A DNA stretch of 64,000 bases from a virus, in the IMG/VR virus record IMGVR_UViG_3300021959_000011, positions 1 to 64,000 of that record; one strand, 5' to 3'. The notes beneath the pieces were generated by a model. That model saw only the letters and a list, made by a program, of their open reading frames with translations. It did no database searches and was not told the origin of the DNA. A program made the translations under genes and the position numbers. Below, one piece after another: positions 59,808 through 64,000 of the stretch; within the stretch, counting starts at the first letter, position 1; every line of letters starts with the position of its first letter.

Positions 59808-60251
59808 TTGCACAAAAGATTCACATATAAAGGTAAGTTCAAACCAATAAATCCCCACAAATACGCTGGTGACGTAAAAAATATTGTATTTCGTTCACTA
59901 TGGGAACGTAGATTCATGAAATATTGTGACACAAATAGAAATGTTATTGCATGGAACAGTGAAGAAGTAGTAATACCATACAAATCGCCAATCGATGGAA
60001 AATATCATAGATATTATCCAGACTTTTTAATAAGAATAAAGTCATCAAATGACACAAAAAAGACGATATTGATAGAAGTCAAACCGAAAAAAGAAACAAG
60101 GCCTCCCAAAAAAAGAAAAAAGACTGTTAGATATCTACAAGAAGTAAAAACGTGGGGAGTAAATGAGGCAAAATGGAAAGCTGCAGAAGAATATTGTAAA
60201 GACCGTAAGTGGGAATTTAAGATTCTTACAGAAGATCATCTTTTGCCCTGA
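59808..60251 (+). CDS. gp4: Head completion nuclease gp4 (TnsA-like fold)
   Basis: YKGKFKPINPHKYAGD, RSLWERRFM, WNSEE, HRYYPDF, IEVKP, NEAKWKAA; TTG start. Confidence 0.92.
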   Translation: MHKRFTYKGKFKPINPHKYAGDVKNIVFRSLWERRFMKYCDTNRNVIAWNSEEVVIPYKSPIDGKYHRYYPDFLIRIKSSNDTKKTILIEVKPKKETRPPKKRKKTVRYLQEVKTWGVNEAKWKAAEEYCKDRKWEFKILTEDHLLP

Positions 60252-60876: not shown

Positions 60877-61803
60877 ATGTATAAGCCTGGATTTAGTGTA
60901 GAAGATTTTCGTAATGGTATTGCGCGTACTGGATTATCCAGAGCAAATAAATATGTGTTGAAAATATCTCCCCCGCCCAAGTTGGTTGGTAAACTAGAAA
61001 GTAGAAATCTAGAAGAAATATTTCTTAGAATTGACACAGTAGAATTGCCCGGCAAATCTCTTGCAACTTCAGAGGTTAAGTACTATGGGCCCCCAAGAAA
61101 ATCTCCATATGGAATGACATATGAAGATTTAAATTGCACACTTATGTTGTCTGCAAATATACGTGAAAGATATATTTTCAGTCAATGGATGAATGCGATA
61201 TACGATTATGAAACTGCAAGACTAGAATATTTTGAGAACTATACGACAGACTTAGAATTTATAACTTACAGTGAAGATGGAAACCCGTTAGCTACTACAA
61301 AGTTTGAAGAGGCATACCCATTGTCTATTGGTGCGATTAATTTTGCATATTCAAACGAAGATGTTGCAAGGATGCCACTAACATTCGCATATAGAAAGTG
61401 GGTAGAAACCGCGCCAGTTAAATTGAGTGGTGCGGTATCTCCATACGGTAGTCTTGCAAACGCACAGCAGTATTTATCATCAGAAGAATATGGAAATTCT
61501 TTTGAAAGATTTATTAATCAAGCCGAATCAAGTAGTCCATTCGGACAGATAGCTTCGGGATTTGCAAAACTAGGTGGGGTGGATGCATCATTAAATTCCG
61601 TAGTAAATAACATGAGTAGTATACTAAACGAACCATTTAGTGCAGTACAAGACTTTGGTAACAAGATAACTGCATCATTAAACGAACCATTTAAAGAATT
61701 TGGTAATTTACAAAATAGAATTAGTCAATTTAATCCAGTTAGTAGATTACAAAGTCAGGCGAACAATTTTGTCAAGAAAAGATTTGGTGGACTTTTCGGA
61801 TAA
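60877..61803 (+). CDS. gp54: Tail-tube initiator gp54-like (gp19 fold) with C-terminal extension
   Basis: GLSRANKY, VELPGKSL, FSQWMNAI, FEEAYPLSIG, TFAYRKW; ~130-aa amphipathic tail. Confidence 0.7.
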   Translation: MYKPGFSVEDFRNGIARTGLSRANKYVLKISPPPKLVGKLESRNLEEIFLRIDTVELPGKSLATSEVKYYGPPRKSPYGMTYEDLNCTLMLSANIRERYIFSQWMNAIYDYETARLEYFENYTTDLEFITYSEDGNPLATTKFEEAYPLSIGAINFAYSNEDVARMPLTFAYRKWVETAPVKLSGAVSPYGSLANAQQYLSSEEYGNSFERFINQAESSSPFGQIASGFAKLGGVDASLNSVVNNMSSILNEPFSAVQDFGNKITASLNEPFKEFGNLQNRISQFNPVSRLQSQANNFVKKRFGGLFG

Positions 61804-61831: not shown

Positions 61832-62569
61832 ATGTCTTTACCTATTATTAACCAACCAACATATGAGTTGACTTTACCATCAACAAATAAAACATTAAGA
61901 TTTAGACCTTTTTTGGTAAAAGAAGAAAAAATTCTTTTAATGGCCCAAGAGGGGGGAGATATCGATGAACAGATTGAATCAGTAAAACAGATAGTAAGAA
62001 ATTGTATTGTTTCTGATACTAATGTAGATACTATGTCAACATTTGATATTGAATATCTTTTTATTAAAATTCGTAGTAAATCTGTCGGAAATATTATTAA
62101 TCTAAATTATAAATTTGATAACTGCACAGCAGAGTTAAATGATGATAGTACTGTACCAAGAATTTGCGAAGTACCATTTGAATTAGACTTAGATGAAGTA
62201 GTAGTTAAAACCGAAGGAGAGCACAATAACATTATCAACATAACCGACGATGTTGGTGTTGTGATGAAATATCCAGATTTTAAATTATTAAGTAAAATCG
62301 CATCAATGAATAATTATGATGAACTAATTGATGTTGTTGGTAATTGTGTAAAAATGATTTTTATGGGAGATGAAACATATGACCCCAGTGAATATAAATC
62401 AGAAGAATTGAGAAATTTCTTTGAGAGTTTGAGTCAGGAACAATTTCAAAAAGTTAGTAATTTTTTTGAAACAATGCCACAAACAATGGCAAATGTTCGT
62501 ATACAATGTAAAAAATGCGGAAAGATGGAAAATATTGAATTAAAAGGTATATCGGATTTTTTCGAATAA
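61832..62569 (+). CDS. gp26: Baseplate hub assembly protein gp26
   Basis: MSLPIINQPTYELTLPS, FRPFLVKEEKILLMA, FDIEYLFIKIRSKSVG, MKYP, FFETMP, ends GISDFFE. Confidence 0.92.
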   Translation: MSLPIINQPTYELTLPSTNKTLRFRPFLVKEEKILLMAQEGGDIDEQIESVKQIVRNCIVSDTNVDTMSTFDIEYLFIKIRSKSVGNIINLNYKFDNCTAELNDDSTVPRICEVPFELDLDEVVVKTEGEHNNIINITDDVGVVMKYPDFKLLSKIASMNNYDELIDVVGNCVKMIFMGDETYDPSEYKSEELRNFFESLSQEQFQKVSNFFETMPQTMANVRIQCKKCGKMENIELKGISDFFE

Positions 62570-62739
62570 CTTTATATCATGAAAGTTTGGGGTCTCTCTA
62601 CCAAACAAATTTTTCTCTTATGCAATATCATAAATATAGTTTAACAGAACTAGAAAATATGATTCCTTGGGAACGTGAAATATATGTATCGTTATTAGTT
62701 AACTATTTGCGTGAACAAGAACAGAAACAAAAAGGCTAG
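62539..62739 (+). CDS. gp51: Baseplate hub assembly catalyst gp51 reading frame (first ATG at 62620; possibly entered by -1 frameshift from gp26)
   Basis: Not in the ORF track. Translates ...RITLYHESLGSLYQTNFSLMQYHKYSLTELENMIPWEREIYVSLLVNYLREQEQKQKG*; frame open from 62539 to TAG at 62737-62739. Confidence 0.85.
   Translation: MKRYIGFFRITLYHESLGSLYQTNFSLMQYHKYSLTELENMIPWEREIYVSLLVNYLREQEQKQKG
62557..62563 (+). other. Candidate -1 slippery heptamer T TTT TTC
   Basis: X XXY YYZ pattern in the gp26 frame, one codon before its stop; the -1 frame is the gp51 frame. Confidence 0.55.
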
Positions 62740-62747
62740 AGGATAAT

Positions 62748-62996
62748 ATGGAAATGACAGAAAACAGAGATAATAAATATCAAAATTGGATCGATTTGGC
62801 AAAGGCCGTCGATTCGTGGAGAATCTTTCCAAGACTTTTTATTACGACATACATTTATTTACTGTATGCAGTAGTAAATTGGTTCATGACATTAGACACA
62901 CCAAATTTAGAACAATCTGGTTTGGTTAGTATCGTTGTCGGTGCCGGTGCTGCATGGTTTGGATTATATTTGGGTTCAAGTAAAAAGGCTGAATAA
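62748..62996 (+). CDS. Small two-TM membrane protein (holin-like, function uncertain)
   Basis: 82 aa; DSWRIFPRLF followed by two hydrophobic segments; GAGG RBS. Confidence 0.7.
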   Translation: MEMTENRDNKYQNWIDLAKAVDSWRIFPRLFITTYIYLLYAVVNWFMTLDTPNLEQSGLVSIVVGAGAAWFGLYLGSSKKAE

Positions 62997-64000
62997 TGGC
63001 AACTTTAGATTCCGTAATAGAAAATATTAATAGTTTTAATAATACAGGACAACTATCACAGGCACTAGAAAGTGTCTCTGATAGTTTAGAAACTGGTACT
63101 GGTGTCACTGCACTTGGTGAAATTTCACAACTCATCAAAACACAAGGTGATATGTCTGTTAAGGAATTAAAACGTTCAAGAGAAGATTTAGCATCTCTTA
63201 AAGATAAAGTATTAACATCTGATAGAATTGCAGAAAAAGATAGAAGTAATATTCTAACTCTTATTCAAAATCAAGAAGATGTAATTAATCAAAATACTAC
63301 ATTATCAAAAAGAGCTGCAGAGTTTGTCCAAGAAAATATTAAAGAAAAAATACCAGACATTGCTGGTGTTGCAGCAGGGGTACTTTCGGAGAGTCCAGCG
63401 GCCGCTCTTGGTGTTAAGTTTATTGGTGATAAAATCCAAGAGAGTAGAGAAAGAAAAAGAAAAGAAAGAGAAGAAAGAGCTGCAAGATTGCAGAGAATTG
63501 CAGACGAAGAAGATAGGCATAATAGAGAATTAGAAGTACTACGTGGACAAATAACTAACGAAGAAACTCTTTCTAAAGTCAATATGACTCAACAGGAAGC
63601 TGCAGATATTGCAAAACAAAATGGGATGGATTATCAAGATTATATCAATGACTTAAAAAATCAATTGATTGAACAATCCAAACTACAGAAACAACAAAAA
63701 GATGTTCAAGAAGCAAAATTAAAAGAAACTGAAGAACTAAAAGATAAATTTGGTTTTGATCAAAGTGGGGCCCCAGTAACAGAAAGTCCTATTGGGCCTG
63801 GCAATCCATCTACCCCATCAGAACCACTAGAAACATTATCTGATGGTGGTGGCGAACCATACCTTGCAGAAATTAGAGACTTGTTAAAATTTATGTCAAG
63901 TCCAGATACAGTGACTCCATTTGACATAGAAAATAGTAGAGAAGAACGTAGATTTCAAAAAGATTTGGCCGCAAAAGAAGAGGCAGTAATTGAACAATTA
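62996..64000 (+). CDS. Probable tape measure / gp29-like protein, N-terminal 335 aa, truncated by the window edge
   Basis: Not in the ORF track. ATG overlaps the previous stop (TAATG); MATLDSVIENINSF... stays open to 64000; coiled-coil-rich; located after gp26/gp51. Confidence 0.65.
   Translation, partial: MATLDSVIENINSFNNTGQLSQALESVSDSLETGTGVTALGEISQLIKTQGDMSVKELKRSREDLASLKDKVLTSDRIAEKDRSNILTLIQNQEDVINQNTTLSKRAAEFVQENIKEKIPDIAGVAAGVLSESPAAALGVKFIGDKIQESRERKRKEREERAARLQRIADEEDRHNRELEVLRGQITNEETLSKVNMTQQEAADIAKQNGMDYQDYINDLKNQLIEQSKLQKQQKDVQEAKLKETEELKDKFGFDQSGAPVTESPIGPGNPSTPSEPLETLSDGGGEPYLAEIRDLLKFMSSPDTVTPFDIENSREERRFQKDLAAKEEAVIEQL

Follow-up and report, generated by a model that had tools for sequence, protein, structure and literature searches.

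The question raised by this locus is whether a single gene of a divergent marine T4-like phage gives rise to one tail assembly protein or to two. The window, meaning the entire stretch of DNA analysed here, spans 64,000 nucleotides with a G+C content of 34%, and belongs to an IMG/VR record of 140,926 bp that is estimated to be 70% complete. Towards its end, on the plus strand, an open reading frame at 61832-62569 encodes by standard decoding a 245-aa gp26, matching PF12322 across profile positions 2-219 of 219 (E 8.7e-58) as well as phrog_150 (E 2.6e-60). The 3' end of the gene reads TCG GAT TTT TTC GAA TAA and holds the slippery heptamer T TTT TTC (U UUU UUC in the RNA) at 62557-62563, in phase with gp26 and in X XXY YYZ register. 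The frame at -1 relative to gp26 is closed by a TGA at 62536-62538, open from 62539 and terminated by a TAG at 62737-62739. Counted from the slip site (62563-62739, plus strand), it offers an extension of 58 codons and the stop, the peptide of which matches phrog_634 ('baseplate hub assembly catalyst', E 1.4e-27) and also the C-terminal positions 230-277 of phrog_150, the profile of the gp26 family itself. Slippage would join 244 residues of gp26 to these 58, with a predicted product of 302 aa (...GISDFF-RITLYHESLGSLYQTNFSLMQ...KG). The first ATG of the -1 frame, at 62620-62622, represents Met22 of the extension and is preceded by CAAATTTTTCTCTT, where no purine-rich stretch is present; a TTG is found at 62587.

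The preliminary description of this DNA had reported the heptamer, the -1 relation of a gp51-like frame open from 62539, the lack of a ribosome-binding site ahead of 62620 and the resulting pair of 245 and 302 aa, and all of this is confirmed in the sequence and its translation. It then went further, proposing that a programmed frameshift fuses gp26 to gp51 and that the two form a tail chaperone pair. Both proposals gain from the comparisons below, through conservation of phase and heptamer, conservation that sets in at the slip site, colinearity with T4-type gp51 and the predicted fold of the N-terminal domain. We consider it highly probable that this one gene yields two products. The best explanation, to which we assign a probability of roughly two in three (0.68), is a single chaperone gene with two forms, made by a ribosomal -1 slip on U UUU UUC.

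The gene order around gp26, namely gp4-like, gp2-like, gp54-like, gp26, the gp51-like peptide, an 82-aa protein and a large ORF, is that of T4-like marine phages, with Pelagibacter phage HTVC008M as the nearest isolate (gp26 identity 41.5%). The upstream neighbour at 60877-61803 (plus strand) is a gp54-like tail tube initiator according to phrog_45 (E 7.8e-34) and to synteny with an HTVC008M gene annotated as baseplate tail tube initiator; its match to PF06841 (E 2.3e-5) falls under the family cut-off. Downstream, the 82-aa protein (62748-62996, plus strand) belongs to phrog_10198, a family of unknown function (E 7.4e-21), and is followed by an 847-aa ORF on the same strand that begins at 62996, passes the end of the window at 64000 and runs to 65539 of the genome record. 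The preliminary description placed the pair one small gene upstream of the probable tape measure gene. The small intervening gene is indeed there, and the large ORF is a putative tape measure by gene order only: its position is all it shares with the 'putative tail tape measure' of HTVC008M, to which no similarity was detected, and no Pfam or PHROG family was matched. Besides the gp54-like gene, neither a sheath gene (PF04984) nor one for a major tube protein (PF06841, phrog_45) was found in the genome record; these may either reside in the absent 30% of the genome or be too divergent for the profiles.

To assess the junction among relatives, we compared 80 related IMG/VR loci with gp26 identities of 36-59%. 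The gp51-like peptide lies in the -1 phase in 80/80, and an in-phase N TTT TTN occupies the homologous place, again in 80/80. Variable phase, which the preliminary description had named as evidence that would count against a shift, was not seen. The T-run varies in length among the 70 unique junctions (T6 in 43, T7 in 13, T8 in 14). The residue preceding Phe-Phe varies as well, being Asp, Asn, Ser or Gly, and its codon ends in T every time, while the first Phe codon of the slip site is TTT in all relatives. With the background codon use of the same genes (TTT 73%, GAT 77%, AAT 75%), such a pattern would arise from codon usage alone with P of about 10^-7.4, as calculated on 26 clusters below 60% identity. 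A stronger control is provided by gp26 itself: the equally invariant F211-F212 is coded by an in-phase T6 in 25/70 sequences, compared to 70/70 at F243-F244, and at P26-F27-L28 an in-phase run is present in 6/70. Across the window, the 19,281 codons of the ORFs of 150 aa or more include 9 in-phase copies of T_TTT_TTN. The slip-site motif is therefore conserved in excess of chance.

Three of these nine heptamers sit in gp26. The two additional copies are T TTT TTG at 61909-61915 and T TTT TTT at 62461-62467, and they are not conserved, the run being found in 6/70 and 25/70 relatives, respectively. As read from the sequence, a slip at 62461 would run straight into a TGA.

The constancy of phase also bears on a trivial explanation, that a sequencing error in the homopolymer, or a pseudogene, mimics a shift and the true gene is one continuous ORF. 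Some sequencing chemistries are error-prone at homopolymer runs. The same -1 phase is however present in 80 independent assemblies and in seven isolate genomes, and the T6, T7 and T8 variants all preserve it, since the longer runs arose by substitution, with no base inserted. We regard an error of this kind as virtually discounted.

Next, the beginning of the conserved extension was delineated, as it separates a fusion from a small gene 51 with its own start, be it the TTG at 62587, the ATG at 62620 or re-initiation past the gp26 stop. Several features would suit such a separate gene. An ATG is located at +53 from the gp26 stop in most relatives, stand-alone ORFs of 45-58 aa are annotated in GenBank, as in HTVC008M and P-SSM2, and the phages ValKK3, Mendera and P10VF have an ATG that overlaps with the stop codon of gp26. 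The -1 peptides nevertheless align without gaps from the Phe-Phe of the slip site onward, and the conserved positions L6, H8, L11, Y15, N18 and F19 of the extension are all upstream of Met22, so that the open frame and the protein conservation precede the ATG by some 20 codons, from the T-run. Between the slip site and Met22, the codon-position entropies in the -1 frame are 1.04/0.82/1.48, with the third position most variable, and stops are found in 0/66 sequences in this frame as opposed to 66/66 and 64/66 in the other two. Six loci from three lineages (L052, L054, L055, L059, L078 and L080) have A, V or I in place of Met22. In seven loci gp26 extends 3-8 codons further (L052, L054, L055, L059, L072, L074 and L080), and there conservation begins at the T-run, not at the gp26 stop.

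The isolates point in the same direction. The N-terminal half of the extension is devoid of Met in Aeromonas phages Ah1 and 65.2, which leaves no usable start, and no ORF is annotated. Other GenBank records list a 45-58-aa 'hypothetical protein' or 'hub assembly catalyst', the annotated starts of which differ between phages. The window for its part lacks a ribosome-binding site ahead of 62620. Taken together, conservation from the slip site, the loss of Met22, the Aeromonas phages and the varying starts remove independent initiation as a general explanation, and we judge a separately started gp51 very improbable. A conserved start of gp51, which the preliminary description had considered as a possible refutation, is thus not borne out. 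As candidate starts, TTG 62587 and ATG 62620 were both rejected on comparative grounds, the latter being an unlikely start inside a conserved block.

We then turned to T4-type phages, where gp51 is a full-length protein. In RB68, genes 26 and 51 are divergent, and gene 51 encodes 250 aa, with PF12322 over residues 1-201 (E 3.5e-54) followed by an extension. The -1 peptide of the window aligns to residues 190-244 of this protein (BLASTP, E 4e-6). Moreover, a profile of 65 virtual fusions aligns through the junction as a single colinear match with RB68 gp51 (E 5e-13) and with gp51 of Acinetobacter phage Henu6 (E 1.5e-9); a single-sequence phmmer search of the virtual fusion against T4-type gp51 gave no match. 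The full-length T4 gp51 accordingly displays the peptide as the C-terminus of a gp26-like protein, which also speaks against a free-standing small gp51. Because gp51 consists of a PF12322 domain and the extension, colinear with the fusion, it is the natural counterpart, made without a shift, of the predicted long form. These alignments make T4 gp26 the likely counterpart of the short form and T4 gp51 that of the long form, and at the level of sequence they support a gp26 fused to the gp51-like frame.

T4 gp26 (208 aa) and gp51 (249 aa) have been described as hub assembly chaperones, gp51 being needed for assembly yet absent from the particle (Leiman et al. 2010, PMC3004832). PF12322 is common to both and to gp26 of the window, and T4-type gp51 bears the same C-terminal extension. 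The systems differ in that the two T4 genes are transcribed divergently and lack a slip site, whereas here one gene is followed by a -1 extension, and the 141-kb record is devoid of a second PF12322 gene. It contains one PF12322 locus and one phrog_634 locus, and no T4-like pair of a gene 26 and a separate full-length gene 51 was found in it; a full-length gp51 may lie elsewhere in the genome, as the record is estimated to be only 70% complete. The Phe-Phe pair is retained in RB68 gp26, coded GAA TTC TTT with the T-run gone, and Henu6 is without it.

The slip site also persists in distant lineages. An in-phase T TTT TTC/TTT/TTG with a -1 extension is present in the isolates HTVC008M (where the slip site is a T8), P-SSM2, Stenotrophomonas phage Mendera, Vibrio phage ValKK3, Rhizobium phage P10VF and Aeromonas phages Ah1 and 65.2. 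In Salmonella phage SeF6a (Ackermannviridae; L086 2790-2850) and Vibrio phage K362 (L093 2200-2260), the -1 extension is kept, but all that is left of the T-run is an in-phase T_TTC tetramer (ATT TTC and CTT TTC). Either a slip of the tetramer type or a different route could serve these two phages; in E. coli, U_UU.C ranks second among the tetramers (PMC4066793).

The structure predicted for gp26 was exploited to shed light on the nature of the pair, the preliminary description having suggested a comparison with tail assembly chaperones. The AlphaFold2 model (pLDDT 90.6, pTM 0.84) was compared with 48,161 representative solved chains using VIA-align. The best match, over residues 1-90, is 3fgx (Z 8.2, 85 aligned residues, rmsd 4.0), along with 2ob9, the HK97 tail assembly chaperone (Z 7.5, 82 aligned, rmsd 3.4), and 3klu, YqbN (Z 7.1, 85 aligned, rmsd 4.2). 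Each of the three spans most of the solved chain, and the entries below them drop to Z 5.3 and 4.3, with the top values being middling in absolute terms. We take 3fgx and 3klu to be tail assembly chaperones too. Foldseek with the gp26 model against a PDB library returned no significant match, nor did a profile search of PDB sequences. The model thus supports a tail-assembly-chaperone fold for the N-terminal domain, and for the extension the prediction is a unit of three helices (pLDDT 81).

These features recall lambda G/GT, and P2 E/E+E', where two forms, one short and one long, have the same N-terminal part. As in lambda, the extension is without a start of its own; the gene precedes a large ORF that would, by its position, be the tape measure gene; neither product is in the virion according to the lambda data, and the N-terminal domain of gp26, as modelled, matches the HK97 chaperone 2ob9. 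The heptamer is different, U UUU UUC here and G GGA AAG in lambda. Furthermore, gp26 has about 150 residues beyond the chaperone domain, a small gene precedes the large ORF, and neither gp26 nor the extension has detectable sequence similarity to lambda G or T.

The preliminary description knew of no report of such a frameshift in T4-like phages. The pair has in fact been published: as reported by papers that cite their work, Vladimirov, Gautam and Davidson assigned the role of tail assembly chaperones in T4-like phages to these genes (Virology 2022;566:9-15; doi 10.1016/j.virol.2021.11.003). The Pseudomonas phage Adele paper credits this work with the terms TAC-N and TAC-NC and with poly-T slip signals at the ends of T4-like TAC-N genes. 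The PRFect paper attributes to it that some T4-like phages have a short chaperone gene and a longer fused gene, with no frameshift. As these citing papers report it, the genes are the same as ours, the short TAC-N corresponding to gp26 and the long TAC-NC to the product with the extension, and the T4-type has a short and a fused long gene. The arrangement is hence not new, and the window adds a divergent marine phage to a published kind.

How would the shift be achieved? Heptamers of the H_HH.U_UU.Y class, to which U UUU UUY belongs, rank among the best -1 shift sites in E. coli, with more than 0.1% shift in the case of U UUU UUY without stimulators (Sharma et al. 2014, PMC4066793). As the site is a homopolymer, slippage by RNA polymerase, with one U added in some mRNAs, would lead to the same two proteins and may occur, above all in the T7 and T8 variants. 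Congruent with such a transcriptional origin, the site is always a T6-T8 homopolymer, with T7 or T8 in 27/70 unique junctions and T8 in HTVC008M, and E. coli genes are depleted of UUUUUUU in every frame, a deficit that has been linked to transcriptional slippage (Sharma et al., PMC4066793). The lack of a detectable downstream RNA stimulator would fit as well: no conserved structure emerged from 66 sequences (mean z -0.26; RNAalifold none), and the fold downstream of the heptamer in the window has -7.3 kcal/mol (z -0.39). A downstream stimulatory RNA structure was on these grounds rejected for this clade. Against polymerase slippage, 43/70 junctions, including that of the window, have only T6, a short run for productive slippage by the polymerase.

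More informative is the region upstream. Relatives have GAG GGA about 10 nt upstream of the heptamer, and the Glu codon at this Shine-Dalgarno (SD)-like site is GAG in 23/30, compared to a background of 17% (10/11 by cluster, P 2e-7). The GAGG is kept by selection on synonymous choice in the relatives. In the window the equivalent position (62543-62548) reads AAA GGT, a weak element with an anti-SD duplex of only -3.9 kcal/mol. As an SD-like stimulator plays no part in polymerase slippage, a synonymously kept GAGG makes sense only for a ribosomal event, and favours it. The spacing of this element to the heptamer in the relatives, about 10 nt, resembles that of E. coli dnaX; differences to dnaX are the lack of a detected downstream hairpin, the weak element in the window and the other heptamer. 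The cited literature leans the same way, since the 'other mechanism' of the 2022 paper is, as PRFect presents it, that of two separate genes, and the Adele paper takes its poly-T tracts as -1 frameshift signals. On balance we hold a transcriptional shift to be unlikely, at a probability well below that of ribosomal slippage. Should the 2022 paper favour a non-translational poly-T mechanism, the ribosomal and SD evidence would oppose it.

From the observed anatomy, conservation and homologies we infer how ribosomal slippage would operate. Most ribosomes would read gp26 to its TAA and release the 245-aa short form. A minority would slip back one base on U UUU UUC (62557-62563) with tRNA-Phe in the P and A sites, and we would expect the efficiency to be low, similar to lambda. 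The slipped ribosomes would go on for 58 codons in the -1 frame and complete the 302-aa long form with its putative three-helix extension. If the pair works like lambda G/GT, the tape measure protein would be coated by the N-terminal chaperone domain that both forms have in common, with the extension joining this domain to the next assembly partner. A broader scenario, for which we see even odds, is that the ribosomal shift is ancestral across the T4 superfamily and tuned in most lineages by a dnaX-like SD element, with T4 and its close relatives having later moved to two genes and lost the run.

With the idea already in print, the value of the present analysis is in its confirmation on a new, divergent marine phage and in the comparative controls, which bear on the choice between ribosomal and transcriptional slippage. 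Gp26 and gp51 have long been puzzling as hub assembly factors; as short and long chaperone, they would let T4-like phages fit the rule that such a pair is made by long-tailed phages. There are also consequences for annotation. The 'gp51' of cyanophages, pelagiphages and many other T4-like phages has been entered as a stand-alone ORF with an arbitrary start or omitted, and should become a joined CDS with gp26. The extension is unannotated in the GenBank records of Ah1 (L092, 2257-2422) and 65.2 (L094, 2218-2380).

Two minor observations concern the proteins of this region. Gp26 has a conserved C-x-K-C-G near its C-terminus (residues about 226-229) and an earlier conserved Cys (about 97-121), which as a sequence pattern suggests a small zinc-binding element past the chaperone domain; weak matches to zinc-ribbon Pfam families (E 0.04-0.06) are seen with RB68 gp51. 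The gp4-like head completion protein further upstream (59808-60251; phrog_218, E 5.8e-60) also matches PF08722, the TnsA-like endonuclease N-terminal domain, with E 3.5e-26.
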